Source: a virus
Taxonomy: Duplodnaviria > Caudoviricetes
DNA length: 64,000 nucleotides
Strand: one strand, 5' to 3'
Virus record (IMG/VR): IMGVR_UViG_3300021255_002539
Span: 128,001-192,000 of that record
Shown: positions 3,877 to 61,020 of the stretch, in pieces
How the letters are laid out: every line of letters starts with the position of its first letter
How positions within the stretch are numbered: position 1 is the first letter of the stretch
Translations under genes and position numbers: made by a program
The notes under the pieces: model-generated
Told to the model about the DNA's origin: nothing
The model's database searches: none
What the model saw: the letters and a program-made list of their open reading frames with translations, nothing else

Positions 3877-3920
3877 TGCCGTTCTCCTTTGGTGAACTCA
3901 TGGGCATCACCTTTCCCTCA

Positions 3921-3966
3921 CAACACCTATATTATAGCATATTCAGATTCGGTTTGTCAATACCCC
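3921..3966 (-). promoter_or_regulatory. Early sigma70-type promoter (TTGACA-N18-TATAAT, extended -10)
   Basis: TTGACA at 3955-3960 and TATAAT at 3931-3936, followed by the conserved ATAGGTGTTGTGAG leader. Five copies of the promoter occur in the window. Confidence 0.85.
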
Positions 3967-4086
3967 CTATGAGGGTATTACGGATATCCTTCGGACATCC
4001 TTCAATACCCCCTATCAGATTTCTGTTTTGGTATTTGAGGGGTTTTTTGTAAATACTATAAAGAACCATCTATTACATTCAAAACC

Positions 4087-21276: not shown

Positions 21277-21350
21277 ATACGGTATTTACCATTTGTTGCC
21301 ATTCTTTGTAAATAGATATATACAACAACCAAAGATGGGAATTGACGACG

Positions 21351-30463: not shown

Positions 30464-30527
30464 GTTTTGTTTTGGCCCGTAAAGATGTAAATATTATCCG
30501 ACATTTCTTGTATAATTCAAGTTGAAT

Positions 30528-32204
30528 ATGGCGCACAATGGCACAGAAAAGAAAGACAGAAGCGAGACCACAGACAAGTGCATGGTCTCCGTGTGTCTGC
30601 ATGGCGTGAAGTTGAGGGACGAAAAGAACCTGCCACTGATGGTGGATTTGGCGAAGACCTTCAACTCTGCGTCACGTTGCGCCTTCAAGCGGTTCAAGGA
30701 CATTGGGTTGAATGGAATGCTCAAGTCCCATAGGGAACCAACCAAAAGGGCATTCCAGTTCAGGGATGTACCAATGGTAAATGGCAGACCTGTGTGCTTC
30801 GACAAGCCAGTTGGAATGTCGGACGAGATGTGGTTGAACATGCGTCTGGAATCCTACAAGCGCAAGGTCAATTCGCACCAGGCAAACCCCTTCTGGCAAA
30901 TTGACAAGGATTTGGGCAGCCCGATATTGGGTACAGAGAGGATTGTTGGGGAATGGTTGGACAACAATGGCTACAAATTGGACTCCAACCTCCTACACAA
31001 CGCCATATTGGATGGACTGAAGAACTACAAGTCCTTTGAAAGGCAAGTGTCCAATTTCAAGACAGGCAAGTTCAACCCATCGTTTGGGGATATTCAGAAT
31101 AGATCAAAACGACGCATTGACCAGGACGAGTTCCAATTGACCAGAAACGCATCCTTCACTGTCGTTGGAAGCGCATCCCAAAAAGGCAACCCCAAGTTCA
31201 GGTTCAATGTAGACGACAACACATTCACCTTCACATACCAAAGAAGGAAGATCGAGTTCGACTTCTCTGCCCACCACTTCTCCAAGAACAACCTCAAGCA
31301 GGTGTCCAGAATAGTGGAGATGATGGAGTCCAGAAAACTGCCAGTGACCGTGACATTGAAGCGCATTGGCAAGGGCAACTCCTTCGAGGTGACTTTGACC
31401 TGCTCCCAATCCCAATTGTCCAGGTGCATTGGAGAGGACCAGAACTGCAAGGATAACAACATAGTGTCTGGCATTTGGGTTGGTGGAGACATCATCCACC
31501 ACAACATAGTGGACCAGACGTCAGGCAGGACATTGTACTCCAAGACATACAGAATGGATGAGTTGTCTGGGGAGAAAAGGTGCGCCAAGCAAATGGAGTC
31601 CTTGAGGTTCAATGGGGACTACAAGACCCTATCAAAGGCCAGAAAGCACCTGAACAACAGAATTTCAAACACCACCCACAATCTGCTCAAGAAGGTATTC
31701 AACATCAACAAGGCACATAATGTGGGATCTGTCGTAGTCGAGAAGCCATCGTCAATGACCAAGAGGAAGTTCAACAACTCCTTGATTGGCTTCGACAAGT
31801 ACGATGTGGAGAATGGAACAGGAGCAGCCTGCTTCATGAACCCAACCAAGTTCAACGCAATGGTGAAAAGCCATTGCGCCAGGAACATGATGGAGTTCAA
31901 GCAGGTAAATGGAGAATTCATACAGACAAAGGCTGTCCTGGAGTCAAAGACCATGGGAGAGGCAATTGGAAACGCCGGCCTCGAAATGGTATCCAGGGCA
32001 GATTCGAAAACAGGCAAGACCTCTCTGACCGACTTGGCTTTGGAGATGTCCCTTGACCCTTCCATGCTTGATTGGGTCGGGCATCTTCTCCACAACAAGC
32101 GCAGTCGGCAGGCGAGAATCGAGCTGAAAAGGGCGTTTCAAGCAAGGGCAGTCGAGAGAGCTGTCCGCCTGGTTGACAACAGGTCCAGTTCTATTCTTGT
32201 CTGA
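30528..32204 (+). CDS. TnpB/IS200-IS605 OrfB-like protein, RuvC apparently inactivated
   Basis: N-terminal FNSASRCAFKRF helix and GSASQKGNPKFRF. RuvC-I region reads GIWVG (Asp lost), RuvC-II reads VVVEK, and no clear RuvC-III Asp is present. Confidence 0.55.
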   Translation: MAHNGTEKKDRSETTDKCMVSVCLHGVKLRDEKNLPLMVDLAKTFNSASRCAFKRFKDIGLNGMLKSHREPTKRAFQFRDVPMVNGRPVCFDKPVGMSDEMWLNMRLESYKRKVNSHQANPFWQIDKDLGSPILGTERIVGEWLDNNGYKLDSNLLHNAILDGLKNYKSFERQVSNFKTGKFNPSFGDIQNRSKRRIDQDEFQLTRNASFTVVGSASQKGNPKFRFNVDDNTFTFTYQRRKIEFDFSAHHFSKNNLKQVSRIVEMMESRKLPVTVTLKRIGKGNSFEVTLTCSQSQLSRCIGEDQNCKDNNIVSGIWVGGDIIHHNIVDQTSGRTLYSKTYRMDELSGEKRCAKQMESLRFNGDYKTLSKARKHLNNRISNTTHNLLKKVFNINKAHNVGSVVVEKPSSMTKRKFNNSLIGFDKYDVENGTGAACFMNPTKFNAMVKSHCARNMMEFKQVNGEFIQTKAVLESKTMGEAIGNAGLEMVSRADSKTGKTSLTDLALEMSLDPSMLDWVGHLLHNKRSRQARIELKRAFQARAVERAVRLVDNRSSSILV

Positions 32205-32947: not shown

Positions 32948-34627
32948 TTATATTTCGTTTCCGTCGTCATCCGTGACAGTGACAGAGTTTTCGTTCGGCT
33001 TGTTATCCTTGTTGTCGTTGCTGTCGATGTTCACAGCCCCAACCTTGACAACTTCATCTTCTGGAGTCTTCTCTGGTTTTTCCACCTCTTGCTCCTCCTT
33101 GCCCTTCACGACCTCCACCTTCTTTGGCTTGTTGGGGTCTTCCTTCTTTGGAATCTGTTTGGATTGCTCGATGTCCTTTTTCGTCTTCTGCTTCGCCTTG
33201 ATCTCGTGTCCAACATTCTTCGCCTTTTCCTTCTGTGCCTGCTCCTGCTTGGCCTTCTCTTCCTTCTCCCTCTGTTCGTCGTCAATCCTCTTCTGCTCAA
33301 GTCTGTCGATTTCCTGCTTGATTTCCACATTGAACTTGGGGAAGAAGGACGATGGGGACTTCTTGGCGTCCAGGCAGTTGTCCACCAGGAAGCACTTGAT
33401 GGTGTGATCCTCCCCTGGGGTGAAGTCCTGTCCATAGAAGTATGTCGCCTTGCCACGTATCTTGGTTCTCCTGGTCCGATACGAATATGGCGCAACCCTT
33501 CTGGATATCGTCTCGCCATCCACTGTCTCGTACTTCAGCCACACCATCTTGCGGTTCTCTGCGCACCAGGCGATTGTATCCCACATGTCGTCGAGTGATG
33601 ATTCCCTGAGCAATCTCCTGCGACTTTTCCTCCTTCTGGTCGGTCTCTCGTCAGCTTGTCCAGTGACGAACCTCTTTCCGATTGGCATTGGGGCGTTGAC
33701 GCCTGGAACCTCCACATCGTCAACTATCCACTTGCCACCCTTTGAGGCGACACTCACGCCACAGAACTTCATGGTGTAGGTGTTGTTGACGATGAGCCAC
33801 TTGGTGTAGATTGGAAAGGATGTCAACACGTCATCATCACCATTTCTGATGATGCGCTCTATGTGTTGCTCCCCAGAGGACATGTTCTCGAAGTCGCCTA
33901 TGAACACGGCGCCAGTGGAGATGTCAGTGCCAAACCAACACAGGTCTATGAGGTCTTTGTTGGTGATTCGCACGTCCATGTAGTCACCCCTTTGCATCCA
34001 ATGTTCCTTGGCGTATTGCCTCAACTTCTGACCACATTGGAACATTATTTCGTGGAACATCTTCCTGGCCTTGCAGACATAGGTGGCGTTGGTCTTCTTG
34101 TGTGAGATTCCATAGAGGGTGCCATCGGTCAACCTCACTGTCGTGTCAGAACGGTTCTGCTCCCCATTCGTCCCATGGCTTGCAGATGCGTCTATGACCT
34201 CAACTATGTCCAGTTTCACCCTGACTCCATAGTTGTCAGAGATGTCGAGGTGGCAAACGCCATTCCTCTCGATTTCATCCAAGATGAACTTCTGAAAGTC
34301 CTCTTCGTTCTTCCTCCCCGCCCTGTGGCTGCCACCCTTCTTGATTCTGACCACTATTGGCTCTCCCTCGTCCTCTTCCTCATCGTCCAAATATGTCGGA
34401 ATCTCCAGGGTGTAGCCATCCTTCTTCGTTTTCCTCGGTGCGAGAAAGTCAATTCCCAGTTTCGGGCCGATGACCCTCACCAATTCCCTTCGCATTGCCT
34501 TGGGGTCAGGGGTATTGACTTGCAGAACCCTGTAGTCTTTCCTCACCTGGACGATTTGCACATCCAGACCTTCAACTTCTTGAAGAAGGTCGAAGTACTC
34601 GTCTATTGTGTTCGCTTCAGTTTTCAT
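32948..34627 (-). CDS. PD-(D/E)xK-like nuclease fused to a WYL domain, with a charged tail
   Basis: E..RSD..YGISHKK nuclease-like motif. After LLRE|S comes a WYL pattern, VWLKYETVDGETISRRVAPY..YFYGQD..IKCFLVDN. Confidence 0.6.
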   Translation of the reverse strand: MKTEANTIDEYFDLLQEVEGLDVQIVQVRKDYRVLQVNTPDPKAMRRELVRVIGPKLGIDFLAPRKTKKDGYTLEIPTYLDDEEEDEGEPIVVRIKKGGSHRAGRKNEEDFQKFILDEIERNGVCHLDISDNYGVRVKLDIVEVIDASASHGTNGEQNRSDTTVRLTDGTLYGISHKKTNATYVCKARKMFHEIMFQCGQKLRQYAKEHWMQRGDYMDVRITNKDLIDLCWFGTDISTGAVFIGDFENMSSGEQHIERIIRNGDDDVLTSFPIYTKWLIVNNTYTMKFCGVSVASKGGKWIVDDVEVPGVNAPMPIGKRFVTGQADERPTRRRKSRRRLLRESSLDDMWDTIAWCAENRKMVWLKYETVDGETISRRVAPYSYRTRRTKIRGKATYFYGQDFTPGEDHTIKCFLVDNCLDAKKSPSSFFPKFNVEIKQEIDRLEQKRIDDEQREKEEKAKQEQAQKEKAKNVGHEIKAKQKTKKDIEQSKQIPKKEDPNKPKKVEVVKGKEEQEVEKPEKTPEDEVVKVGAVNIDSNDNKDNKPNENSVTVTDDDGNEI

Positions 34628-34637
34628 GTTCGCCTCC

Positions 34638-37600
34638 TCAATCAAACTTCGCCCAGGATGGTATGCTCCAGGACGGGTGGAACTCGTGGAACACCTCAAG
34701 GCATCTTCCAATCTCGTGTCTCGTGTCGGGGTTCTGCCACATGTCAGAATCCACAAGCGCGTCCCAGGCGTCCCTTGGAGTCAGTATGTCGTCGCTCGTG
34801 AGGGTCTTGTCGTTGTAGAGGAACTGCACTATCTCGTCGGGGTCGTTCGTGACAAGTTGCTTGTCCACCACGCTCCACTTCGCATATGTGCCGTTCTTCT
34901 TCTGTTTCCTGGCGCGCCGTATTCTGTACAACCCCACTCGGTAGTCGTAGTCGTACCTCGTCATCTCAACTGGTTGGTTCTTGCCCTCGCCTGGTATGTC
35001 GGCGGTGGCAGTGACCTCAACATGCCCGCCTCTCGCAATAGCTGTGAACAGTCCGTTTCTGAACCCACTCTTCGGATTCACATCTTCGTCAGCCTCGCCG
35101 TTCTATACCTCCTTCAGGTCAGGCGAGAACATGCCCCACTTGGTGAACTTCATGCTGGGGGTGAGGCACAGATCAACCTGGACATACTCCCCTTCCTGCT
35201 CCCCGTCCACATTCTCGATTGGAAACGCATACGATGTAGCAGTCCATCCGTCGTTCTTGTTTATGGAGTGGTCTACGCCCAGCCTGTCTGCCACATCGTA
35301 GCACAGGTCTATGAACTCCTCTGGGGTGTTCAGTCCATTGGCGTCAGCCAGAGCCTTCTGGTCTATGGCTATGTCCAGGTCGCCCGATGTTGGCTTCTTG
35401 CCAGCAGACCCAACCAGTTCTATGGAGCCGTCTGGGAGGCTGAACGCCTGTTTCAGCGCCTCAACAGCCTTCCTAGCGGTCTCTGGTATGTTCGCCTTGT
35501 TAATCCTAGTTGTCTGCACCTTCTTGAAGTGCTTGTCTCCACTTTCGTTCGTCATCTTCGCCTTCCTATTCTACTGTCCTGCGTTGAACTTGTCTGCCCT
35601 CGCTTGGTCTGTCATGGATGGGTAGTCCCCACTCTCTGGGTTCATCAACTTGTACACTTCGTCGAATTGCTGGTCGGACAGTTCAGATGGAAGCACCTTT
35701 TTCAACGCCTCCTTGTCGTCAATGTGGTCTCTCACATAGGTCGCTGATATGTTGGAATCCCCATCTGTGGTCGCGTTGATTGCGTTCTCCTCTATTGGCA
35801 ATATCTCCACATTCTGAAGTGTGTCCTTGAATCTGTCGGTCGTAAATGCACTGAACCTGGACATGTCGTCCTTCTTGGACAACCCAAACATGACCTTGCA
35901 GTTGGAGAAGTGGCGCACAGTTGCAGAAATCCAATTCATCGGGTTCAGTGTCATCGCAATCTGAACATTGTCCAAATGGGCAGCCTCACAATATATCTCC
36001 AGAATCTCGCCAGCCACGAAGTTGGGCATGGAGCGCCCGAACTTGTCGTATCTTTGGGACGCGACATTCGTTTGCCCAGACACAGCGACAATCACTTCGT
36101 CGCATATCTCGGCATAGTGCCTTATCATGTCGAGGTGTCCCTTGTGTGGCGGTCTGAACGAGCCAGGAATCAGCGCTATCGTCTTGCCATTCTGGTCCAC
36201 GACCTTGCCATCCACCATCTCCACGAGGGACATCACATCGTTCGTGAGCAGGTTGGGGTCGAACCTCTTCGGAAGACCTTCCGCCCTCGCCTTTGAAATC
36301 TTGTCTATGAACCTGGGGAGGTCTGTCCTTCCCTTCGCGTGCGCAGCCAGTTCTTGTGCTCTGTCTATGTACTTGGGCAACAACTCCTCGTACTTCGTCT
36401 GGTACTCCTGTGGGTTCTACCGTATTGCGTTCACCATGGCGACCAGGCTCCCCTTCTCGCTCTTGCCAGTTATCGCCGACAGAAACCTCTTGGTGAAGTC
36501 CGACATCTCGTCTATCTCAGAGAAGTAGCCATTTCTGATGTCCTTCCAAGATTGGTAATGTATGCCATACAGGTTGCCCTTCAACTCAAACGCAACTCCC
36601 TCCAAAGAACCATCGTCTGCCTTCATTATGTCGGGGTTCTTGAACTTGCGCTTCATTATGTCAGTGAGGGCGGCGTTTATCTTGTCCCTGAGCTCCTCTG
36701 CCTCCTGCTTCTTCATCTTGTCTATGGTTGCTGTATTGAAAGCCTCAACCACATCATCTCCAAAGTCCTGTGCCTTGAGTTCCACCTCCTGCGCGAACTT
36801 GTTGATGTCGAAGTAGGATGCGTTGGCGTCTGACAGCTATGAGCAGGCGAAGTCCACGACCTTCTTCTTCGTTTCTGGCTCCAGGTCAAACGCCTTTTCC
36901 TTCGTCATCCCCTTCACATCAATTATGACCAGTGAGCCACGTCTGCCCAGTTTCTTTGCGTCGTAGGTGGTTCCGACATAGGTTATGGTGCCATCGTCGT
37001 CTGCGAACTCGTCGCCGTTGGAGAGCAGTTCACCAACCAACTTCACGCCATCCAGACCCAACCCCTTCACGAACTTCGCCATCTTCTCGTTTTGGTTTTC
37101 CTCCACATAGGTGAAGAAGTTCAACTCGTGGTCGTGCACCTGTGGCGTGGCTTCAGCACCTTGTCTGTCGAGCAATCCAGAATACGAAATCTCCATCAGA
37201 ACCTTGCCATCCAGCCAAGCCACCCTGAACGGGTAGCCGTCAATCTTTGGCGTGACCTTCACAATCAGCGTGGAGTCGTTGACGCTCGATATGAAGTCGT
37301 GCAAGAATTGCCTCAATTGCTTCCCTGTGAGTTGGTGTATCTTCGTCATTGCCTGGCGTGGCGTGTCTATCTCTGACATGTCCTTGGTGCTGCCGATGGA
37401 CTCGTCGACCTCCTGTGTTGTGTAGTCAGATGCCTTTAGCCCAAGGAAGTCCTCTAGTTCAGGTGGAATGTAGTCTATGTTGCCTTTCTTCAGAGGCCGT
37501 TCCAGTCCAGTTCTGAGAGACTTCTTGAACTGCTCCATCCTCACCGGGTTCTTCAATATGCCTTGCTTCTTCACTGCGTTCCAAGCATCTTGCCAAGTGA

Positions 37601-39437
37601 GCATGTTGGCAGAATCAACTCCAAACAGAATCTCGCATATCTCGTCTGGGTCGTCGGTCACCAATTCCCTGCCAACTTCCTTTTCGCCCGAGACATGGAT
37701 TCCCTCTTCTCCCTTCTTGCCCTTCATCAAAGGACGCTCAAATGTCTTCTTGAACAAACCACCTTCTTCATGTGTATAGGAATATCTTTCCCATTTGGTT
37801 GGTTGTTCCTCGTCTCCCATTCCATTGACAAGTCCAGTGTCAAGAACCCTGAATCCAGACACCCTTGCTGCTGCAGTGATTATCTGATTTCTCACCAGAC
37901 CCTTGACATACTGCTCACCCTCCACTTCTTGTGGACCGAATTGCCCCCACGCCTGGAACTTGAGGTTGTCCACTGGGATGAGGTCCAGCTGCACCACTTG
38001 ACCTTCCTGCTCTCCATCGTCGTTGCTGATTGGGTAGCCAACGGATGTTCCCTGCCACTCCCATCTCGGAAAGTTCTTCACCTCAAGCCCGTACTTCCTG
38101 CCGAACTCGTCGGCGAGGTCGAACCACTCTGAGACATCTGTTATGCCATGCTTCTGCTCCAGCGCCTGTTTGGATATCGCTATGTCGATGTCTCCGCTTG
38201 AGCCAGAATCCAGCTTCTTCCCCGTTGAGCCAAGAAAGGACACCTCGTCCTCAGACAGACCAAAGAAGTCCAGAACCTTCTGCTTCGCCGAGTCCATGGT
38301 GGACTTCGCGTTGCGCTGGTTCAGCCTTACTGCTCCTGGTATCCTCTTGCCACCCTCCTTCACCAGGGTGCTTTCGGTAACGGGCCTCCCATGACCATCT
38401 GGTCCGTCTGGGTCTGGCTTCTCTATCCCCAGCTCGTCCAACATCTCCTGTGGCATCTCCAATCCGTCGTTGATTCTATCGAGCAGCTTCTTCTTCATCG
38501 AGTCCACGAAGATCTGCCACTGCTCTGGGTTCTTTGCCCATTCGGCATCGTGTGCTGCCCTCCAGCATCCATCCCAGGTGAGCAAGTCCTTTCCCTTCAC
38601 CTTTGGTCCGAACATCAGCTTCGCAATCTTGTCAGGGTCGTCAGAAACCAGAGTGCGCTTTGTCCTGGACTTGTCCAGACCCTGGTTGTACACAGGACCC
38701 TCCACGCCGTCTGGGAGGTTCTTTGGCTGGTTCTTCATCAGAGACCGCTCCTTGTGCCACTTGTTCAGACCCTCAGGGGTGAAGAACACATACTCCTCCC
38801 AGACCACGGGCTCCTCCACGAATCCTCCATCCTTCTTCACAGTGCCAGTCTTCAGCACCTCCATCTTCTGCATGGCGTGGGAGGCAGCCTCAAGAACCAG
38901 GTTCCTTATCACGCCCTTGATGTACTTCTGTCCAGCAATCTCCTTTGGCGCGTACCTGGACCAGGCCTAGAACTTCATGTTGGTCGTTGGCATGAGGTCT
39001 ACCTGAACGAACTGACCCTTCTGCTTTCCATCGAAGTTCACAATAGGAACCCTTATGGAGAACTGCTCAACCTGGAAATTGTGCTTCAGACCCAACTTGT
39101 CCAGTATGGGTGATGCGTACTGGTTGAACTCGTACGGCTTCCTCGCAAATTCGTACTTGTTCGCGTCAATGCCAATGTCGAGGTCGCCAGATGTGGAGCC
39201 TGGCAGCTTCTTCGTGACAGAGCCAACTGGTTGCGTGTCCTTTCTGTCGATTCCCAGAGCAGGAAGTATCTCGTCGTAGATGTACTTCAGCGTTGCGGCC
39301 ACATTCTCCTGGTTTATCCTGACTGTGTCGTCGAACATCTTTCCACTTTCAAGCAACAACTCCTTGGTTTCGCCAACCAGGATTGTCCTCAAGTCGTCAG
39401 CACTCATTTCACCAACTACATCTTCTATGTTGTTCAT
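34638..39437 (-). CDS. 1599-aa polyprotein: 3 Pol-beta-type nucleotidyltransferases, a KxDG ligase-like domain and an HxGH nucleotidyltransferase (5 TAG read as Gln)
   Basis: Six ORF-track fragments share one frame, separated only by TAG at 38967, 36837, 36417, 35571 and 35103. Motifs: GS..K..SGD(L/I)DI..Q(V/L)DL three times, TPKIDG..EGVAF, and PGSFRPPHKGH. Confidence 0.85.
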
Positions 39438-39477
39438 GGTCTATTGTGTCTCTCTTTTGGGAAGTTCATGTCTTGTC

Positions 39478-39509
39478 TATTTACCATTTCAACAAAACAA
39501 AGGTAAATA
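39478..39509. promoter_or_regulatory. Divergent pair of late-promoter motifs (GTAAATA)
   Basis: Minus-strand copy at 39478-39484 and plus-strand copy at 39503-39509; resembles the T4 late promoter TATAAATA. Confidence 0.7.
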
Positions 39510-39517
39510 GTGTCATC

Positions 39518-41437
39518 ATGGATACGACAAGCAAGAACACTGTTGTGCTGGAGGGTGGACACATGCCCTTCAAGAACGACAAGGGGGAGATGTTGGAGGT
39601 TTCACCCATTGACCAGGATAATGCCGCAGCCACCCTCGACGACATCCAGGACAGGTTCATATCTGGGTTTCTGCATCTGGACCCAAGCGAGGACACCGCC
39701 ACCCTGGGTTCCACTGGCAAGAGGTTGAGTGGGGAGTAGAGTTCTGACATTGACATAGCCATAGACTATTTCAAGCTGCAAAAGGAATGGGATTTGCCAG
39801 ATTGGACAGGGAAGCGCATTGAGGAATGGGTGGATTTGGCAAGGTCTGGCGCAGAGGAATGTGGAGTGGAGTTTTCCATGGTTTCCACGGTGTGTTCATT
39901 GCGCTGGCCGATAGTGAACGACGATGGAAAGCAAGAGGACCAGTATGTTCAGGTTGACTTGATGCCGACAACCAACATGAAGATGACAAGGTTCGGAAGG
40001 TTCTCCCAGTAGCAGAGGGATGGAGAGACCTTCTTCAAGGGGTCGGTCAGGAACATCATGTTGGCAATCATGGCAAGATGCGCATACCACAAGGATTTGA
40101 CTGACGAGACCCATGTGAAGGTTCTGTCGGACGGCACCGAGAAGGAAGTCCACAACGAGTACGAGGGGTGGACATACGACCAGAACACGGGTCTGCACCT
40201 TTGCCACAAGAAGTATTAGCAATACACCAGAAATGGAAATGGATTCAAGAAGGGCGATTGGAAATCCCATGCAACTGTGGTCGATTCCCCAGTGATATCT
40301 TCTGACCCCGACGAGATTTGCGAGATGATATTTGGCAAGGGCGTTACCCCCGACGATGTTGACACAGTTCAGAAGATGTGGAGGGCGTGGAAGAGTTCAC
40401 CTGCTGTCAAGGAGAATCCAGACTTGGTCGAAGAGGTGAAGATTCAGGTTCAGCGGTCAGCACAAGGCAATCCAGACATGACATTCCCAGACTTCGATGG
40501 TGAGGAATTCGTAAATGAAGCCAGGGTGAAGAAGGATCCAACCGAGCAAGTCGACGAATACATCAAGTCCCTGTCAGAAGACCAGATTCAGACCCTCACA
40601 TTGAGGTGTTCTGAACTCCTGGACAAGTGGGACGAACCACAGGGTTCAGACACAGTCCTCAGAGTGAGGCAAGTGGTTGGCAACGACGAGAGGTTCCTGA
40701 AGTTCCTGCGAAAGACAGTTCCATTGACCGAGCCAAAGGTCAGGGACATGGGGGCAAACACCTTCGTTTCGCATTTCTTCGACCCACCATTTGACAACGA
40801 GGCGTTCATAGGCAAGATGGCGAAGGAGAAGGGTATACCATTTACGCAAGCTGAGGAAGAATGGAATAGATCCAATTTGGACAAGACCCACGTTGGGAGG
40901 TATGCCCATATGCTTGCTGACGATGCCGTGAATGGTAGGCCACCATCAAAGGAGGGGACGAACCCCAAGGAGGTTGCGATATACGAGGCTGTGTACGAGT
41001 ACGCCAAGAATCTGGTGCAGGGTGCGTCTGATGTCGAAAGCGAGGTTTCCCTACATGCTTCAAGCGTTACGGTTGGTGGCAAGTTCGACCTGATGATGAA
41101 GAAGGGCAGCCAATGGGTTTTGGTGGATTGGAAGACCAATGGTGAGGAGCTTGAGGACATACCCAATGGCAAGGTTGGTCTGGACGAATTGACCAAGAAC
41201 ATCAACAACAACGCCTACAACAAGTACGCACTTCAGTTGAATGTATACGAGTGGGCAGCAAAGGACAGTGGCAAGATACCGAAGAATGCTGTCGTGAGCA
41301 AGGAACTCCACCACTTCCAGTACCTTGAGGATGGAAAGCCAATTCAGATTAGGGTTGTCAAGGTTCCAGACCTTCAGCCACTGGTTCAAGCAATGGTGGA
41401 CAGGGCGGTAGAACTTGGCGTAGTCAAGCGCAAATAA
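39518..41437 (+). CDS. Pol-beta-type nucleotidyltransferase fused to a RecB/Cas4-like PD-(D/E)xK nuclease (639 aa, 3 TAG read as Gln)
   Basis: LGSTGKR..SSDIDI..QVDLMPTTNMK. C-terminal GRYAH..E..GKFDL..VDWKT..YALQLNVY. TAGs at 39737, 40010 and 40217. Confidence 0.8.
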
Positions 41438-41480
41438 TTGTAAATAGAACAAGAAGAACCTACATAGAGGGAACAAGCAA

Positions 41481-42734
41481 ATGAAATTCAAGAAGATTGT
41501 AAGGGAAACATCCAATTTGGACGACATGGACTATGAAATTGCGCAGAAGATGCGGGATTTCGCAAAGAAGAACATTCCAGAAGTAAGAAATGTTGTTTCC
41601 GGAAGCGCAACTGGGCAGGTATATGTGATGCTCAAGCCCGATGTTTACATAATGGCTGATGAAGCGAAAGAAATCGCACGGGAATTGATACGCGCATCTG
41701 GCGCACGTGGTTATAGATATGTTGGTGTGAACAAGGCAGACCCATATATCGTCATTGCCAGAAGGGGAATTGCAAGCGAGGCGATGAAGAAGAGGAGGAG
41801 CAAGACGCATTCCAAAGATGCCGAGAAATACTGGTTTGGCATCAAGGACGCGGAGTTCATATACCACGGAGACTGGAACGATCCAGAGGTGGAGTACAAG
41901 GGCGTGTCGTTCAACTACTATGACATCGAGAGTGGATTGCTTGGAATATACCGTGACGAGCATCCAGAGGACAGGAACGACAAGGGATTCGACGAGTGGA
42001 TGGCAGCCCACCCAGAGGAAATCAAAAGCGAATTGGATATGCTCTACGACGCCGAGATGGAGTACAGGGCAAACAACCCAAAAGGGCAGTACAACGAGGT
42101 GGAGTACAAGCCTTCGCCTGAATACGACGATAGCTGGACTTGGGGCGGAAAGCGTCACGAATGGGGCGACACCTACGGAACACTGTGCAGTAAATACGGT
42201 CCGATGGTCAGCCTTGAGCAAAAGCACTATATCCAGAAGCTTGTGAAGGAGATAGCGGACGAGTTTGGCGTGAAGACCTACGATGGATTCAACAACCTCG
42301 TCTGCGTGTCCACCAATGGAGTTTCTGACGAGGATGCTGAAGACTTCATCCAGGAGATTCTCGACAACTATCCAGAGCTGGACTATGTTGAGACTGGGAA
42401 GCACTGGTTCAAGTTCGCGCTAAAGGAGGATGACTTCATTGACCATCTCGTTGACGACGACGACAATACGTATAAAGACATTGACTACAGCGGGTTGAGA
42501 AAATACGACGAGTCCTGGGTTGGGGACAAGGCGAAGGCTGGATGGAAGAAGATCAAGTCTGGCGCAAAGAAGATGGCGAAGGCTGTTGGCGATGTGTTCA
42601 AGGGTCCGTTTAGAAAGGGCGATCATATCGTCATGAGGGGCGAAGATGGTGAGGAGTTCAAGGGAACAATCAAGTCCTTCGACCTCGGAAACAAGACATA
42701 CGAGGTTTTGCTTGGAAATCCAGTTGGCGAGTAA
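41481..42734 (+). CDS. Putative multi-module head-internal protein
   Basis: MKFKKIVRE|T leader, internal IASE|A and YDE|S; GTAAATA at 41440. Confidence 0.65.
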   Translation: MKFKKIVRETSNLDDMDYEIAQKMRDFAKKNIPEVRNVVSGSATGQVYVMLKPDVYIMADEAKEIARELIRASGARGYRYVGVNKADPYIVIARRGIASEAMKKRRSKTHSKDAEKYWFGIKDAEFIYHGDWNDPEVEYKGVSFNYYDIESGLLGIYRDEHPEDRNDKGFDEWMAAHPEEIKSELDMLYDAEMEYRANNPKGQYNEVEYKPSPEYDDSWTWGGKRHEWGDTYGTLCSKYGPMVSLEQKHYIQKLVKEIADEFGVKTYDGFNNLVCVSTNGVSDEDAEDFIQEILDNYPELDYVETGKHWFKFALKEDDFIDHLVDDDDNTYKDIDYSGLRKYDESWVGDKAKAGWKKIKSGAKKMAKAVGDVFKGPFRKGDHIVMRGEDGEEFKGTIKSFDLGNKTYEVLLGNPVGE

Positions 42735-42754
42735 TTGGAGTGGCAGAAGATGAA

Positions 42755-42789
42755 ACGAAGATGGGCTGGATTTCTCCAGCCCATTTCGT
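42755..42789. terminator. Hairpin between convergent genes
   Basis: atgggctgga-tttc-tccagcccat inverted repeat. Confidence 0.65.
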
Positions 42790-42821
42790 CTATCATGTAG
42801 TTGACTCAACATGTAGTTGAC

Positions 42822-43223
42822 TTAATGCGTGTATTGCTCGGTGAATTGCCTGAACAGGAGATTGCCATATAGATACGCCTCTCCCTCTATTTCCTTCAAC
42901 TTGGAGTCCTCCTTCAATGGGAGGTTTGAAGCAGATTGGGCGAAACCCTCTGGATCGACCAGATTCTGGTTTCTGTGAACCATCTCGTGGCAAAACGACC
43001 TCAATATGTCCTTGATGTGCCGGTTGTCCACGAACAACACAATCTCGTTGTTGTTGGGGTCGTAGTATCCCGTTTTGATGAACAGTTCGTCCTCTGGGTT
43101 TGGCGTCTCGTCCAATGTGACTTTGGGCAGAGGGTCTATGTCGAACTTCTGGTCTCTGAGGTACTTCACAATCTCCTCAATCCAGTAGTTGATCATGTCT
43201 ATCTTCGTTTCGTTGGTTGTCAT
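42822..43223 (-). CDS. Zincin-like metallopeptidase (HExxH)
   Basis: TGYYDP..ILRSFCHEMVH..EGEAY; GTAAATA at 43233-43239. Confidence 0.75.
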   Translation of the reverse strand: MTTNETKIDMINYWIEEIVKYLRDQKFDIDPLPKVTLDETPNPEDELFIKTGYYDPNNNEIVLFVDNRHIKDILRSFCHEMVHRNQNLVDPEGFAQSASNLPLKEDSKLKEIEGEAYLYGNLLFRQFTEQYTH

Positions 43224-43271
43224 GGCAAGTTCTATTTACCAAAGTCGCCTCCAAATGGTAAATACCAACAT

Positions 43272-50462: not shown

Positions 50463-53400
50463 ATGGCAACAAGAGATTTGAGAGCACCTGGTGTGTCTAT
50501 CATTGAACATGATCTCTCTGGCTACACCACGACCAACATTGGTACTTCCTGCCTCATCACTGGTTTTGCGCAGAAGGGCGAGGACCTGGAGCCGATTCAC
50601 ATCACGAACCGCTCTGCATGGCTGCTCAACTATGGTGCGCCAACCAACGAGGCCGAGGAGTACTTCTACAACGCAGGCATGGAGGTACTGAACCAAGGTG
50701 GCTTCCTTTACGCCGCGAAGATACCCTATTCAAACGACATGGCGGGAATCTACGCTGCATCCAAGTTCATAGTTGGAAAGAACCAGCCAATCTACAAGCA
50801 GAATGCAGATGGGTTCTTCATTGCTGACGAACTGAATGATGATGGAAGCGAGATTGAGATAATGGATGATACTGGGACAAATCCCCTTAGTCCAACATCT
50901 CCAGAGGGTCGCTTCATCCGCAACTACAGGGGCTTGAAGGACTTGGGCATCAACACGCTTCAGCTTATCGCTCCAGCAGCACAGGACTTCCTCTCGAAGG
51001 ACTTGGTTGACGAGTACGAGTGTGGCGAGACCAGGCCGAACTCGAATGTCATCTACTTGGTTGACAAGACCCGTGCAGTTTACACCCGCGCACCAGAGGT
51101 TGCCGACAAGCAGGACAACCGTGATTCGCGCTACTGCATTGGCATTGTCCCTGTGATAACCACGATGTGCAACACAGCATGGTTCCAGAAGAATGTGACT
51201 GGCTTGAAGGCAGATGTGGATGAACTCTACCAGCCAGTCCGCTCCCTCAAGACGATTGAGTTCCCAGCGGGCGCTGCAAGTGCTGCTGAGTACAAGGCTA
51301 CCAAGTTCGTGGATTCCGACCTCCACACGCCTTTGATGAAGGACGACAGGGCGTTTGCGACATCCCTCTCTGAGATGGCCGCGACGATTGCCCAGTCTTG
51401 CTTGACGAAGGGTAACTTGGTTGATGGCAAGTTCAAGCCCTACATCTGCAACGATGTGGCTGTCGTTGTGTTCAAGGCGTTCGTCTCCACCGAGGACGGA
51501 AAGCTGGAGTTCACCCCAGTCGAGACTTTCGTTGGCTCCCTGGACCCTGATGGCAAGGACGAGAAGGGCCGCACGACATTCATCGACAAGATCGTGAACG
51601 ACAACTCCGAGTACATCTACTGCTTCTCCAACTTGGCGAATCCACAGCAGGTTCTCAATCCTGACCATGGTTTCGTCGCTGGCTCTGATTCTGAGTATGA
51701 CGAGGTGAAGAAGGAGATCAAGAACGACTTGGAGTACGATGCTGCCTCCTTGTTCTCTGCATATGCGGCGAGGATGCTTGGTTTTGACCACAACGAGTCA
51801 TCTGACATGTCTGGTCTTGCTGCTCCAAGGTACTTCCCTGAGGAGGTTCATGACGAGGACGATCCCACAAGCGAGTTGTATGATTTGTCCAGACGGACAA
51901 TGGGTTCACTTCGCCAGTTCTACAACCAGGACGCCAAGCACCGAGTGTGTGTTTTGGACGAACTGGTCTATGGTGGCAAGTTGAAGGAGGATGACTTCAA
52001 GAAGATTGTTGGAGAAGAAATCTACGGATACATCTCTGGACAGTTGACCGACAAGTACCTCAACATCGTGGACAAGTTCATCACAAAGACCCCTTCGTTC
52101 AAGTACGACTTGGACGCCAACAACAACGAGGGTTCTGTGAACTTCACACTTGAACAGGAGAAGGACTACGACTACGACATCGAGAACTACTCCTACAAGT
52201 TCACGATGGGTGCCGACACAGACAACAAGCAAAACGATTGGAAGGATTGGGTCAACGCAATCTCTGGAATGAAACTTGGCGAGTTGAACATCCTCAACTC
52301 CACCGACTACCTCCGCGCCATCTACGACTTCGACGAGTTGGTTGAAGCTGATGTATTGGCGAAGATTGAGGATCCAAGTGGGAATGTCCCTGATCCAGAT
52401 TCAGAGGAATGGGCGATAATCCGCCAAAAGGCAATCCAGGCGTTGGTAATCAACTCCATCGAGAAGTCCGGCAGGTTCAAGCTCAACCTCCGCAACCTCA
52501 AGAAGGCGCAAATCAACATCGACAAGCTCGATGACGCATTCGTCGCCTCCCAGAGCGCAGAGAAGGAAACCGACAAGGCAATTGGCAAGAAGTATGTCGA
52601 AGACCTGTTCAAGTCCTACAACGACCTTGGACTTCTCTCTGGTATCAACTTCGTGGATGTCGACAAGTAGTCGTCCTCCTCTTCTTCAAGCAAGTCTGAT
52701 GGGGACATCCTCTCCAAGAAGGACGCGCTTGAGGCTAAGCTCGACGCAATCGTGAACATCGACACGAGCAAGCCACAGAAGATGAAGCCCCGTCAGGGAC
52801 ACGATACCCCAACTGGTGGAGACGAGGACCTGGACTTCCTGGAGAAGTACCTCCGCGTGAGGATGTACCTTGAGGCGCAGTTCAACGCGAAGAAGGCCGA
52901 CCTCCTCTCTGCGATTGCCAAGATAATGGAGGATTGTTGCTACGCGCAGCAACGCTATGTCGAGGCAATGCGCAACAAGGACGACTCCTCAATCATGTTG
53001 GGCTTCTACCCAGAGATGGCTGAGCCAATCATCACCTACACCACAATCGCGCAGTCCCTCAACAAGATACTCGACACGATGAAGAACATCAACGAGTGCG
53101 ACATAGATGTGATGTGCGACGCGGGTGTTTCCAACATCGCCCAGTTCGTCAAGCAGGTCTACGACCCAAGCGCAGACGATGGCGAGGATGTTGGTGGTCT
53201 CTACAACCCAGTGAAGTACTCCAGCTACTTCAAGTTCAACAAGAACACGGATCTCGCCTACTGGAAGACGATTGTGTACAAGTTCGACACATTCTGCAAG
53301 TACCGTGGCGACTGCATGTTCTGCACAGAGGGGCCTCGTGGAATGGTTCTGATTGGAAACAAGCAGGTCGTGCGCAAGACCAAGAAGGACACGAACATCG

Positions 53401-54083
53401 ACCTCAACATCTTGCCCTACTTGAGCAAGATCACAGGGTTCAACACCTCCTATGGCGCTGGCTACCTCAACTGGTACCGCACGATATCCGACTACACCGG
53501 AGACACCCTCTGGGTTCCACCATCCATCAAGGCAATGGGTACCTACATCCTCACGGACAAGCAGTACAATTGGTGGGATGCCCCAGCAGGAATGCGCCGT
53601 GGCGTAATCAACATGGCAGAGACCTCCTTCAACCCCAACAAGGATCAGGCGGGAGACATCTACGACGCCAACTGGAACTACGCAATACACTATGTCAACG
53701 ATGGCATCATCCAGGAGGGTCAGAAGACCTTCCAGACGAGGCAGAGTGCGCTTGACCGCGTGAATGTCCGCCGTCTCATTGGACGCATCAAGAGGTATGT
53801 GTACCACGCATCCAGGCAGTTCCTCTACGAGCCACACACTCAGGCAATCCGCGAGAAGTATGTCAAGACAATCACTCCATTCTTCCAGGACCTGATGAAC
53901 AGGGGTGGGTTGTATGGGTACAAGATTATTTGCGACAACACGAACAATACGCCGGAAGTTATCGACCGTAATGAACTCAGAGTGAAGATAGGCATCAAGC
54001 CAGTCAAGACCATAGAGTTCATAATAATCGACCTCTGTGTGTTGAACACCGGAGCGAGCTGGACAGAAATGGACGCGGTTTAA
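50463..54083 (+). CDS. Major tail sheath protein (1206 aa, 1 TAG read as Gln)
   Basis: N-terminal RAPGVSIIEHDLS..GFAQKG..YGAP and C-terminal WDAPAG.RRG, GQKT..ALDRVNVRR, NNTPEVIDRNEL..KPVKTIEFI. The halves are joined in frame at TAG 52668. Confidence 0.92.
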
Positions 54084-57172: not shown

Positions 57173-57973
57173 TTAGTTGAGTTCAATGTCCTGAAAGATT
57201 TCCTCTGGCTTGGTCTTGAATTCCACTGCGTTCATCCTGTCCTGAATCTTCCTCAATGTCTCCACAGGAAGCACATCAATTGGATTGGGGCAACCCTTGA
57301 AATTTCCACGAATCACGGTGTCGAGGTCGTCATAGCTGAACCCAATCTTGTCCTCGTCGGTCTGCTCGGAAAGACCATCTGCCGGGGTCTTTTCGACGAG
57401 ATACCTTGGGATTTCAGGCATTGTAAGTCCAATTGCCACGACCTCGTTCTTGGTGAGTCTTATCAGTGGTTTGAGGTCTCCTGCAGAATCTCCGTTCTTG
57501 GTGAAGTAGCCCGTGAGGAATTCACTGAGGTTGCTGGTGTTGACCACCCTTCCCCCAATCGTCTGACTCACGGCATACAATGTGGTCATGCGAAGCCTTG
57601 GGGCGAGGTTGATTGTGGTCTGGGAGGACAGCCCCTTCGTCCAATCAAGTTTCTCTGCCAAGTTGAGATCCACTTCAGAGCCAATGGCGTTGTAGGCCGC
57701 GTTGATGTTGACGATGATGTACTTGATTCCAAGCGAATTGCACACTGCAATGGAGTCTCCAATGTCCTTCTGTGTTCCGTTTGGCATCAACACACCAAGA
57801 ACCTTGTCCTTGCCCAATGCCCTAGTACAAAGACCAGCTACAATCGTGCTATCCTTGCCTCCACTGATTCCAATGACCGCGTACTTGTCCTTGCCATTTC
57901 GGTCGAACCAATCCCTGAGCCAGCTCACGAGGTTGTCTCTCGTCTTCTCTGCGTTGAAGTAATTCATGTTCAT
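57173..57973 (-). CDS. nadE: NH3-dependent NAD+ synthetase
   Basis: VIGISGGKDS, N..PRLRM..LY, NLSE..GYFTKNGD, P..LTK.EV, PADGL..TDED..GFSY..LD. Confidence 0.93.
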   Translation of the reverse strand: MNMNYFNAEKTRDNLVSWLRDWFDRNGKDKYAVIGISGGKDSTIVAGLCTRALGKDKVLGVLMPNGTQKDIGDSIAVCNSLGIKYIIVNINAAYNAIGSEVDLNLAEKLDWTKGLSSQTTINLAPRLRMTTLYAVSQTIGGRVVNTSNLSEFLTGYFTKNGDSAGDLKPLIRLTKNEVVAIGLTMPEIPRYLVEKTPADGLSEQTDEDKIGFSYDDLDTVIRGNFKGCPNPIDVLPVETLRKIQDRMNAVEFKTKPEEIFQDIELN

Positions 57974-57974
57974 T

Positions 57975-58160
57975 TTATTTTGTCTCCTTTGTCCAAGTTG
58001 TTCTCCATTTTCTGTCCTGGTTTGGAAATGGGCTACTGCCACGTTCAATCCAGGTTTCAATTTTCAATTCGTATCCTCTTTTGACCATTGATACAACGAA
58101 GTCAATTTCATTCATGATTTCGTATGCCAATCCATTTGCCAATTCTTGTTCAACATCCAT
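57975..58160 (-). CDS. Small hypothetical protein
   Basis: GGAGG RBS; tightly packed in the operon. Confidence 0.5.
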   Translation of the reverse strand: MDVEQELANGLAYEIMNEIDFVVSMVKRGYELKIETWIERGSSPFPNQDRKWRTTWTKETK

Positions 58161-58688: not shown

Positions 58689-60161
58689 TCACACTCCCTT
58701 GTTGATTCTGTCCCGGATTTCGGCGAAGGTGGTCTTGTTGAGCATCACGCCATCCTTGAACACAGTCTTGAGCGCGCTGGCGGTCTCGTTGAGCATCTTG
58801 TCGTGTTCATCGGTCTCGAACAGGTTGCCATTGCTGTCCCTCATGACCCAAACGATTCCCTTGTGGCTCTTCTTGAGCTTGCCGGTGTCGGTCTTCGGGT
58901 CCTTGTAGATGAAGTGGAACTGGCCATTGGTGACGCCAGCACAAGCCTTGGCCGCGATTCCAAAGGTATCTCGGGTGTTGACAATCAACTTCTCGTTGTC
59001 GAAGATCGCGCTGAAGCAAAAGGCACCCACGCCAAAGCAGACATTGTTGGCTGCGAACCCATGCTTCTCCATCCAATCCCAAATCTTGCGCACTGTGAAG
59101 AGTGTGCATCCATCGCCCAGGATGATTCTGATGTGGGGATCCAGGACGCTATAACCCTTGCTGTTCTCCTCTCCACCGAACTCGTCCCAAAGCATTTCGA
59201 GGGTCTTGGTCACTGTCTCAAACTGGTCTCCCGAATCCGGGCGGATTAGGAGCGTCCCATTGTGCTTGAGGATTTCACCCTTGAGCGCAGGGATGATGTT
59301 CTCGACCAGGTTCCAGTAGTCGTAGGTGTCCGAAACCATGCTGAACGAGGTGTTGGGGTAGATCTCGGTTAGCATGCGCTTGATGAAGGTCACTTCGTCC
59401 CCATCAATGGCGTAGTTGCTTGCCATCACACTGTGTTCAGTCGAGACAGCACCCTGACCAATCTTGGTGTTGCTCACATCGGCTTCGTAATACTTGTCGA
59501 TGTAGGGAAGCGCCGGGATTGTACTGGTCTTGTTGAAGCAAGTAAGCCAGGCAGCCGAGCACCTAGCGGCTTCGTTCGTGCAGCTCATTCCCCTCATGCC
59601 AAAGTCCGACATGGCGTTCTTGGGGTCGCAATTTGGGTCGCAGGTCCTGTCGTAGTATTCCTTCGCCAGCTCCAGGTACATCTTGGAAATGGTGGCGTGG
59701 TTGCAGGTCTTCCAGAGTTCGGCCTGCAGGATGCACTCAACCCACTGGACGAGCCAAGCGAAGTGATCGTTGGTGTTCGTGATTTCGATGCAGGGGATGC
59801 CCATGTTCACCGAAGTTCCCTCGGGGATTGCCCGAATCTGAAGTGGGAGGTAACCCAGCCTGTGGAGGTCGATGATATTCGTGGTTGCGTATCCCCCACC
59901 AGGAAGCTGAACCTTCATGTACTTCTCGTATTCGGCTATGACTTCGTTGATTTCGCGGTCAAAGAAGTTCTCCTTGAAGTAGTCCACCAGGAACTCCTGA
60001 ATGAAAGCCTGAAGCCCGAAGAACACCATCTTGTCGCAGGTCTTGAGCATGGATTTCCTGGGAGTCCAATAGGAATAGAGTTTCGTCAACCCAGGGTTGT
60101 ATTGAAGAATGTGGCAGAACTTGTAAGTGTCGGCCAAAAGCATTGCGTTTGTCTTAATCAT
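58689..60161 (-). CDS. Nampt/NadV-fold phosphoribosyltransferase (Namat-like), predicted to prefer nicotinate
   Basis: ADTYK..H..QY, FFGLQ, DFGMRG, TEHSVM, SMVSDTYD, IRPDSGD, GDG, FGVG, RDT, KDPKTD..KKS.KG. Ser at the NAMPT Asp219-equivalent position. Confidence 0.9.
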   Translation of the reverse strand: MIKTNAMLLADTYKFCHILQYNPGLTKLYSYWTPRKSMLKTCDKMVFFGLQAFIQEFLVDYFKENFFDREINEVIAEYEKYMKVQLPGGGYATTNIIDLHRLGYLPLQIRAIPEGTSVNMGIPCIEITNTNDHFAWLVQWVECILQAELWKTCNHATISKMYLELAKEYYDRTCDPNCDPKNAMSDFGMRGMSCTNEAARCSAAWLTCFNKTSTIPALPYIDKYYEADVSNTKIGQGAVSTEHSVMASNYAIDGDEVTFIKRMLTEIYPNTSFSMVSDTYDYWNLVENIIPALKGEILKHNGTLLIRPDSGDQFETVTKTLEMLWDEFGGEENSKGYSVLDPHIRIILGDGCTLFTVRKIWDWMEKHGFAANNVCFGVGAFCFSAIFDNEKLIVNTRDTFGIAAKACAGVTNGQFHFIYKDPKTDTGKLKKSHKGIVWVMRDSNGNLFETDEHDKMLNETASALKTVFKDGVMLNKTTFAEIRDRINKGV

Positions 60162-60177
60162 TGTCTTGTTCTCCTTT

Positions 60178-61020
60178 TTAGAATTCACGAATAATCTTGA
60201 TCTTGTTGCTGGCAACCTGTACACGGAAGATGGAGTTGGTGGCGTAGATGGTCTTGATGAGGTCTCCCTGAATCAGCTTGCCCTTCTCCTTGTCCATTAC
60301 CGAGTTCTCAAGGTGGGTGACATAGCAGGAGATGTCGTTTGCCCCCTTGTCCTTCAACGCGCAGGCCGAGTAGTAGAATGTTCCACCATAGGCGCAAATG
60401 TCGTCAATCATGAGGATGTTCTTGCCCTTGAGGTCGTCGTAGCCAGCAATGTCGATTCCCAGAATCTTCCCGGTCTTCCAATCGCGCTTCTTGATGCCAA
60501 ACGCGACTGGCAATTCGAGGAACGAGAGCAGGTCACTATACCTCTTGCAAGCACCTTCATCGGGGAAGTAGAGAACCACATCTCTATCGGTTGCGGCGAA
60601 GTGAAGAGCCATCTGGACATCCTCGGCCACGCAGTCGAAGTCAACGGACACCCGGTCGAACAATGCCTCGCTTACAGTGCTGTGGGGGTTGCAGATGGTG
60701 ACGCCCTCGAACCCAAGCCAGTTGATGGTCTCGGCGAACGCCTTGAGGGTGAATACCTCGTCCGAGTTCTTGACCCTGTCCATTCTGGCGTTGGGGACAT
60801 AGGGAAGTTTGAGCCAAATTCTGCACCTTGCCTTGCTCTTGAGGTGCTTGACGAGCGCAATGAGCTGGAACAGCTCGGAGTCGTTGTCGTAAAGCCATGT
60901 GATTCTGTATGCCCCATCCACGAAAGTGGGGTTGTACTTGATGAGCTTCGTCCCATCGGGGAATGTCGTGGGGTTGAGCATCACCGTGTTCTGGTTGTTC
61001 AAATCTTCTACTTTAATCAT
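60178..61020 (-). CDS. Prs-like pyrophosphokinase (Adps-like)
   Basis: FPDG, PYVPNARMDR, NPHS, PDEGA..RY, KKRDWKTGKI, IDDICAYGGTF, YVTH; directly upstream of the Nampt-like gene. Confidence 0.9.
   Translation of the reverse strand: MIKVEDLNNQNTVMLNPTTFPDGTKLIKYNPTFVDGAYRITWLYDNDSELFQLIALVKHLKSKARCRIWLKLPYVPNARMDRVKNSDEVFTLKAFAETINWLGFEGVTICNPHSTVSEALFDRVSVDFDCVAEDVQMALHFAATDRDVVLYFPDEGACKRYSDLLSFLELPVAFGIKKRDWKTGKILGIDIAGYDDLKGKNILMIDDICAYGGTFYYSACALKDKGANDISCYVTHLENSVMDKEKGKLIQGDLIKTIYATNSIFRVQVASNKIKIIREF

Follow-up and report, generated by a model that had tools for sequence, protein, structure and literature searches.

A TAG-recoded phage polyprotein combining polymerase X-like, RNA-ligase-like and NMNAT-like modules, with possible carriage in the virion

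A recoded frame of 1599 codons and its relatives

We analysed a stretch of 64,000 nucleotides (the window), which corresponds to bases 128001-192000 of the virus record IMGVR_UViG_3300021255_002539, a 414,060-bp genome with a terminal repeat, a guanine-plus-cytosine content of 48% and a CheckV rating of complete. On the minus strand of the window lies P0001, the gene at the centre of this report (Table 1). Under genetic code 11 the strand from 39437 to 34638 falls into six same-frame fragments, and an earlier note made from the sequence had proposed that these fuse into one chain when TAG is read as glutamine. This proved correct: the fragments form a single 1599-aa frame with five in-frame TAG and no internal TAA or TGA. 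It is predicted to encode, in order, two family X polymerase-like (PolX-like) nucleotidyltransferase modules (X1 and X2), an RNA-ligase-like module, a nucleotidyltransferase module of the HxGH type and a third PolX-like module (X3). The divergent gene on the other strand (39518-41437) carries a fourth PolX-like module (X4) together with a PD-(D/E)XK nuclease domain, and so confirms the nuclease-fused fourth paralogue that had been described there.

TAA and TGA together account for 2.4% of the genome's six-frame codons, and from this frequency, simple arithmetic gives ~1e-17 as the probability that 1599 consecutive codons include neither. Long orthologous frames were also found in three contigs of related phages, derived from pig gut and from a further run: 1888 aa with 3 TAG in L001, 1578 aa with 7 TAG in L002 and 1406 aa with 6 TAG in L004. 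The TAGs of P0001 and of these orthologs stand at different, non-homologous positions, and for 15 TAG positions in the proteins of the window, L001 and L002, 8 of the 30 aligned ortholog residues were Gln and the remainder polar. Because the orthologous frames are open, and their TAGs are non-homologous and align with Gln or polar residues, we conclude from the sequence comparison that TAG is read as glutamine in this phage. By the same comparison, P0001 is judged to be a real, conserved multi-enzyme that is made only if TAG is decoded as Gln. Between the window and L002 the polyprotein shares 46% identity and its downstream partner P0050 71% (L002 4840-6579); P0050 holds no TAG here and its L002 ortholog holds 5, and TAG content thus changes fast within one orthologous gene. 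The synteny comparison that the earlier note had suggested showed equivalent long frames, and synteny with UvsX, UvsY and gp32, in four contigs.

We also considered whether the TAGs might be true stops and the fragments separate genes or pieces of a decayed gene. Public gene calls do list P0001 only as separate, unnamed fragments, and a TAG (CUA) suppressor tRNA was not found in the complete genome by ARAGORN (relaxed thresholds, introns allowed) or with the Rfam tRNA model, which speaks against glutamine decoding. However, only ~40% of TAG-recoded phages show a detectable suppressor tRNA (10.1101/2021.08.26.457843), TAGs occur inside the sheath genes as well, and true stops would have to be reconciled with four orthologous frames that stay open over 1400-1900 codons. 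We regard true termination as extremely improbable. ORF (open reading frame)-coverage and stop-pair statistics gave no decision on the genetic code. That code-11 annotation would miss P0001 was rightly predicted, since it returns six pieces; such annotation loses much in recoded phages, and P0001 is an example. A comparison of the locus with cultured phages by tblastn and megablast gave no match, unlike a search with a single-domain relative, which reached Lak, Phosso and Atu_ph07 phages.

Outside the window the phage carries 28 tRNAs and a tmRNA. A tRNA-like gene outside the window, at genome 367853-367926 in a tRNA cluster at 362-371 kb, scored 43 bits with Rfam and has a 6-nt anticodon loop; its anticodon probably reads CAU. 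The phage-encoded tmRNA lies inside the same cluster (genome 368037-368369) and has the tag GNDYRMAA.

Fold classes and family of the modules

From motif strings, all of which are present, the chain had been divided into three unrelated nucleotidyltransferase folds. Structure or profile searches bore out these three classes and refined them: the Pol-beta-type domains to family-X-like, the KxDG domain to RNA-ligase-like and the HxGH domain to NMNAT/PPAT-like. The three Pol-beta-type repeats are indeed paralogous (29-34% identity, GS and Asp residues invariant), with X1 sharing 34% identity with X2 (E 4e-50) and 29% with X3 (E 4e-25), and a genome search returned X1, X2, X3 and X4 as the sole copies of the module. 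Across 18 sequences including X1-X4 the glycine, the serine, a conserved lysine, the DxD and the third Asp (GS...SGDxD...QxD) were invariant. In a tree X1, X2, X3 and X4 each fell into an orthologous clade of their own (support 100/98-100). Since these four clades are old and orthologous, the copies have been maintained and are not recent duplicates.

An AlphaFold 2 (AF2) model of X1, with a predicted local distance difference test score (pLDDT) of 92, returned only family X polymerases among its top 50 Foldseek matches. It aligned with the African swine fever virus (ASFV) Pol X at Z 9.0 over 163 of 176 residues (~14% sequence identity) and with the palm and thumb of eight other family-X polymerases, including Pol beta, lambda, mu, TdT and Thermus PolX, at Z 8.0-8.7. 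The structural alignment covers residues 142-335 of Pol beta and almost the whole of ASFV Pol X at moderate Z-scores of 8-9 and root-mean-square deviations of 3.6-4.9, and the model has additional beta hairpins. CCA-adding enzyme, poly(A) polymerase, TUTase, cGAS-like and MenT structures matched the palm of X1 only (~100 residues, Z <= 6.9). On this modelling, X1-X4 look like family-X polymerases made up of palm plus thumb. By sequence, the Pfam PolX palm and thumb models had no match among 18 + 30 members, apart from weak generic nucleotidyltransferase matches, and a profile of the module searched against PDB sequences found only poly(A) polymerase (E 0.39).

The model of the RNA-ligase-like module (AF2, pLDDT 80) matched TbREL1 best (Foldseek E 3.6e-5, Z 8.8), with T4 Rnl2 at Z 7.6-7.8, Naegleria Rnl5 also among the top matches and DNA ligases at Z 7.0-7.4. 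Residues K17, D19, G20, G88, E89, E232 and G233 were invariant in the ligase alignment A4. The window's own ligase sequence gave no match to PF09414, whereas relatives scored 26.7-26.8 bits against a cut-off of 27, and hhalign joined the module to a relative scoring 26.7 bits on that model with a probability of 99.8% (E 4e-30). A scan of IMG/VR with the module was empty, and its profile search of PDB sequences gave no useful match. From the model, the KxDG module looks like an RNA ligase of the Rnl2/REL1 type. DUF6267, which takes the position of the ligase in some relatives, was considered as a homologue and rejected, as no homology to the ligase module was detectable.

The HxGH module scored 26 on PF01467 (cut-off 21) and 36.8 on TIGR00125 (cut-off 27.7), and the 414-kb genome gave no second PF01467 match. 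Its sequence matches were PPAT and NMNAT structures, and a Nudix domain follows the module in L004, P0053 and P0058, a pairing described as the NMNAT-Nudix form in jumbo phages (PMC7824862). NMNAT is the best reading, while sequence alone leaves PPAT possible. NAMPT-like and NAD synthase (NadE) genes stand ~20 kb away, and together with the HxGH module they would, as judged from the gene content, complete a phage NAD+ salvage route. The genome also encodes an NAD-dependent, LigA-like ligase.

A profile of the PolX-like module retrieved 1423 clusters at 50% identity, mostly single-domain proteins of ~290 aa, and so exposes a large protein family that has neither a Pfam model nor an assay. Thirty long members carried fusions to HxGH (9), DUF6267 (4), Nudix (3), RNA_ligase (3), CCA-adding enzyme (2) and AAA_33 kinase + HD (1) domains. 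The PolX-like module is fused to an RNA-ligase-like domain both here and in relatives, and the two genes are adjacent in phage Atu_ph07. Because its members repeatedly occur joined to RNA ligase, CCA-adding, kinase/HD, Nudix and HxGH domains, the family probably serves in nucleic-acid end repair, with RNA the likeliest substrate. Thus, among the functions that the earlier note had offered, RNA or nucleic-acid end repair fits the domain fusions; protein NMPylation and nucleotide signalling found no support. In Atu_ph07 (L007, 3016-4861), gp66 looks ligase-like (KLDG, EGVVFE, FKTKI), and it overlaps the PolX-like gp65.

The second pair of functions deserves a word, as some members of the Pol-beta superfamily do modify proteins with nucleoside monophosphates (NMPs) or make or destroy nucleotide second messengers, and the structures matched by X1 include cGAS/CD-NTases and MenT (Z 5-6.8, palm only). 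The matches over the full length are polymerases, however, and the fusion partners are enzymes that process nucleic-acid ends, so that we consider such activities very unlikely here. The note had also likened the chain to polyvalent phage proteins. The nucleotidyltransferases of those proteins are of the minimal MNT type, unlike the present modules, and occur in conjugative elements of Firmicutes (PMC5512222). None of their characteristic domains (MPTase, ART, DdrB-ParB, MuF, helicase-MTase) was found in the P0001 chain or its neighbours, and the analogy was given up.

A DNA substrate is harder to dismiss. Under this alternative the modules would form a kit to trim, fill and seal, like ASFV Pol X with its ligase or bacterial LigD, that repairs nicks, gaps and breaks in incoming or replicating phage DNA, perhaps by laying down short patches of ribonucleotides for the Rnl2-like ligase to seal. 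The nearest solved folds are family X DNA polymerases including the thumb, the partner gene has a PD-(D/E)XK exonuclease domain, and synteny with UvsX, UvsY and gp32 is kept in four contigs. Moreover, Rnl2-type ligases are described as sealing nicks that have an RNA 3'-OH strand (PMC1807946, PMC4408790). Set against this are the fusions with RNA-repair domains (PF09414 RNA ligase, CCA-adding enzyme, kinase + HD), a ligase that lacks an OB domain and is matched best by RNA ligases, and the LigA-type DNA ligase that the phage already has. On balance we think DNA repair an unlikely function of the chain.

Several known systems resemble parts of P0001. The closest described concept is the pairing of RlaP with an RNA ligase, in which RlaP extends damaged RNA 3' ends by one or two NMPs ahead of ligation (PMC7824862; PMC12776372). 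The step proposed here is the same, and here, too, a nucleotidyltransferase of the Pol-beta superfamily and an ATP-dependent RNA ligase are physically joined. In contrast to RlaP, however, three to four paralogous copies are present, fused in one chain with an NMNAT-like domain, the modelled fold appears to have a PolX-like thumb and a beta-rich insert where RlaP has a helical C-domain, and PF10127 (RlaP) had no match among family members, nor genome-wide at E <= 1. ASFV Pol X, a palm and thumb without an 8-kDa or fingers domain that acts with a ligase in short-patch repair, is the best solved structural match; the modules are likewise paired with a ligase, but they match no Pfam PolX model, are ~130 residues longer and have an RNA-ligase-like partner without an OB domain. 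The ligase module shares with T4 Rnl2 and trypanosome REL1 (PF09414) the adenylyltransferase fold, the KxDG, GE and EG motifs and an all-helical C-terminal domain; it differs in scoring below PF09414, in lacking an evident motif V lysine pair and in lying within a 1599-aa chain. With NAD+ salvage of the KVP40 NatV type (PMC7824862) the locus has in common the HxGH and ISxTxxR motifs, NAMPT and NadE in the genome and Nudix in relatives, although in the NatV type the NMNAT is fused to Nudix or a kinase and here the nucleotidyltransferase sits inside a repair polyprotein.

Late-type gene class, leaders and possible packaging

The earlier note had placed these genes behind late GTAAATA motifs. The motif is enriched, with 20 copies in the window against 2.1 expected (118 genome-wide), stands 10-45 nt ahead of start codons, often back-to-back and 25 bp apart, and resembles the T4 late promoter; the late timing itself is suggested by gene class. 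Homology-supported recombination and NAD genes held no TAG in 3505 codons, whereas the two sheath genes, P0001, its divergent paralogue and a YadA-like gene held 17 in 5896 (P ~4e-5, by arithmetic). TAG was over-dispersed genome-wide (191 TAG-free genes against 124 expected), which is indicative only, as gene calling took some antisense ORFs. A concentration of TAG in late genes is the pattern reported for recoded phages (10.1101/2021.08.26.457843), and P0001 fits, by its codons, a TAG-containing gene class of late type. Three GTAAATA pairs in the window, at 21283-21314, 39478-39509 and 43233-43264, are exactly 25 bp apart, near-palindromic (TATTTACC...GGTAAATA) and lie between divergent genes; judged by this arrangement, back-to-back pairs look like bidirectional promoter units.

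We next considered packaging in the virion. A survey of family leaders found 14 residues or fewer in 37 of 51 representatives, with a mode of exactly 10, as in MKTFKQFLAE/GG and MKTFKEYLIE/GG (a slash marks the junction with the module). The T4 capsid-targeting sequence is MKTYQEFIAE (PMC8442874), with determinants at positions 4, 7, 8 and 10 (PMC9026906); the family leaders match these determinants, and most single-domain members show the decapeptide pattern of hydrophobic residues at positions 4 and 7 and (L/I)xE at 8-10. Within all four polyproteins E/[GS]G occurs at every module start, mostly with a hydrophobic P3 residue; P0001 has 5 such sites against 1.2 expected. The genome encodes a gp21-like prohead protease (PF03420, 45.1 bits, genome 349663-350115). 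Furthermore, published proteomics of Atu_ph07 virions (PMC6102473 Table S5) identified gp65, a 277-aa PolX-like homologue by structure and sequence, from 10 unique peptides at 36.8% coverage; we mapped the gp numbers of this phage from gene order and the molecular weights of gp65 and gp67-70. The leader survey and this proteome led us to revise the view that E/GG is a fold element only and that packaging has no support.

A second leader, MK[FW]KK[IL]VxE, which also resembles the T4 capsid-targeting sequence and at 41481 shows the decapeptide pattern, heads three ORFs of the phage (window 41481 plus, window 56869 minus, genome 121757 minus) and also a syntenic L004 gene at 2977 (minus). Both window ORFs with this leader start ~30 nt after a GTAAATA, and from their sequences we regard the ORFs with this leader as candidates for head-cargo proteins. 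The Atu_ph07 block gp53-69 around gp66 is made up almost wholly of hypothetical proteins that were detected in virions.

We propose, at a probability of about 50%, that P0001 and its divergent partner form a late-class kit that repairs polynucleotides by nucleotide fill and seal and refills NAD+, probably packaged in the head and injected. The frame, the recoding, the folds, the catalytic motifs, the fusions, the leaders of relatives and one virion-borne homologue are directly supported; from them we infer the substrates, the order of the steps, the cleavage and the packaging as follows. P0001 would be loaded into the prohead, cut at hydrophobic-x-E/GG by the gp21-like protease and injected with the DNA. 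The PD-(D/E)XK nuclease would trim damaged polynucleotide ends, the PolX-like modules would restore missing nucleotides at 3'-OH ends and the ligase would seal the break via a Lys-AMP intermediate, most likely on RNA or tRNA that abortive-infection nucleases of the host have cleaved. The HxGH module would convert nicotinamide mononucleotide (NMN) from the phage NAMPT to NAD+, a step that would offset NAD+-depleting defences and feed the NAD-dependent DNA ligase of the phage.

The packaging claim of the earlier note has indirect support from relatives' leaders, Atu_ph07 gp65, the protease and the junction sites; it found no echo in the N-terminus of P0001 itself. Taken together, our analysis suggests that P0001 is plausibly head cargo. 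Its nearest parallels are T4 IPI-III and Alt, which are cut by gp21 and injected (PMC9026906, PMC8442874): single-domain family members share with them a decapeptide near MKTYQEFIAE that ends in (L/I)xE, but P0001 is a 180-kDa enzyme array with internal junction sites in place of one N-terminal tag.

The same enzymology could also belong to a late cytoplasmic enzyme, neither packaged nor cleaved, that protects the pools of tRNA, RNA and NAD+ while late proteins are being made, with E/GG marking the structural start of a module. Consistent with this, 180 kDa is large for head cargo, the annotated Atu_ph07 homologue begins right at GG without a leader, GG after Glu is nearly invariant as for a fold element, the N-terminus of P0001 is unlike a capsid-targeting sequence and its neighbours include UvsX, UvsY and gp32. 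Yet capsid-targeting-like leaders are common in the family and found at neighbours in the locus, gp65 of Atu_ph07 is present in virions and the genome has its gp21-like protease. We hold a purely cytoplasmic role to be possible but doubtful.

Further points weigh against an injected repair kit or parts of it. The 30-residue N-terminal leader of P0001 is unlike the capsid-targeting decapeptide, the P3 residues at its junctions are V, T or M and not strictly L or I, and the E/GG motif could simply belong to the fold. Atu_ph07 virions were purified with polyethylene glycol, and the proteome list includes obvious contaminants; gp66, the ligase-like neighbour of gp65, was not detected in that proteome (PMC6102473). 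The recombination genes UvsX, UvsY and gp32 are in the immediate neighbourhood. As to the enzymes, fold Z-scores of ~9 are moderate, the top fold matches are DNA polymerases and equally compatible with a DNA substrate, and no Pfam, PHROG or NCBIfam model directly matches the PolX-like or ligase modules. The ligase motif V lysine pair is not evident, with one conserved K/R ~17 residues after motif IV, and the HxGH module reaches only 19-23 bits on NMNAT models (cut-offs 127-341) and 33.7 on the PPAT model (cut-off 103).

Phage RNA repair (Pnkp/Rnl1, RlaP), NAD+ reconstitution and the injection of head proteins are each known but have been studied apart; the locus brings the three ideas together in one chain. 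If P0001 is packaged, counter-defence by repair would start at injection, and expectations would change for abortive-infection defences based on tRNA cleavage or NAD+ consumption. More tentatively, we suggest that T4-related giant phages use the unnamed PolX-like family as capsid-targeted cargo, and that in this phage its modules form, together with an RNA ligase and an NMNAT, a single polyprotein that matures in the capsid, would be injected ready-made and would be active before phage gene expression; the three modules, which diverged long ago, may differ in the nucleotide that each adds.

Features and neighbouring genes

The genes of the window include UvsX/RecA-like, UvsY and gp32-like genes, two tail-sheath paralogues, a DNA methylase, a metallophosphoesterase, NadE and NAMPT; coordinates are collected in Table 1.

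Table 1. Features of the locus and of the rest of the window (window coordinates; a slash in a leader or junction marks the module start)
Feature	Position	Strand	Remarks
Tail-sheath paralogues, 774 and 1206 aa	24110-26434; 50463-54083	+	In-frame TAG in both
P0050, 559 aa, conserved downstream partner	32948-34627	-	0 TAG; weak WYL-like stretch
P0001, 1599-aa ORF with TAG = Gln	34638-39437	-	Stop TGA
Code-11 fragments of P0001	38967-39437, 36837-38912, 36417-36785, 35571-36383, 35103-35555, 34638-35081	-	
In-frame TAG of P0001	38967-38969, 36837-36839, 36417-36419, 35571-35573, 35103-35105	-	Residues 157, 867, 1007, 1289, 1445
X1, PolX-like module	38415-39419	-	Residues 7-341; GS, DxD, third Asp kept; preceded by 30-residue leader ending LLLE/SG
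X2, PolX-like module	37353-38381	-	Residues 353-695; start LVKE/GG
RNA-ligase-like module	36213-37295	-	Residues ~715-1075; KIDG (motif I), GE (III), EG (IV); all-helical C-domain, no OB fold
HxGH (HIGH-superfamily) nucleotidyltransferase module	35628-36185	-	PHKGH, ISATYVR; NMNAT/PPAT-like
X3, PolX-like module	34644-35606	-	Residues 1278-1598; preceded by MTNE/SG
Back-to-back GTAAATA, 25 bp apart	39478-39509		39478-39484 minus, 39503-39509 plus; between divergent genes; T4 late promoter-like
Divergent gene, 639 aa	39518-41437	+	3 TAG; 12-residue leader ending VVLE/GG, X4, PD-(D/E)XK
X4, PolX-like module	about 39533-40678	+	In divergent gene
PD-(D/E)XK exonuclease domain	about 40973-41383	+	phrog_298, E 4.8e-10; in divergent gene
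417-aa protein	41481-42734	+	Leader MKFKKIVRE; ~35 nt after GTAAATA (41440-41446)
P0051, 133 aa	42822-43223	-	HEMVH motif; DUF6782 (unrelated to DUF6267) E 0.04, weak metallopeptidase call
NAD synthase (NadE)	57173-58060	-	
NAMPT-like phosphoribosyltransferase	58689-60224	-	

The earlier note had seen a nuclease-WYL fusion and a zincin flanking the locus. These came through at motif level only: in P0050 WYL was weak (E 0.13), the N-terminal nuclease gained no confirmation and a comparison with the protein atlas gave nothing above chance, and P0051 has its HExxH motif and the DUF6782 match. A 560-aa ORF at window 30522-32204 (plus) adjoins uvsY and has no Pfam match. In L004 a clear OrfB_IS605/Cas12f-like gene (3200-4381, plus) is inserted beside the same locus.

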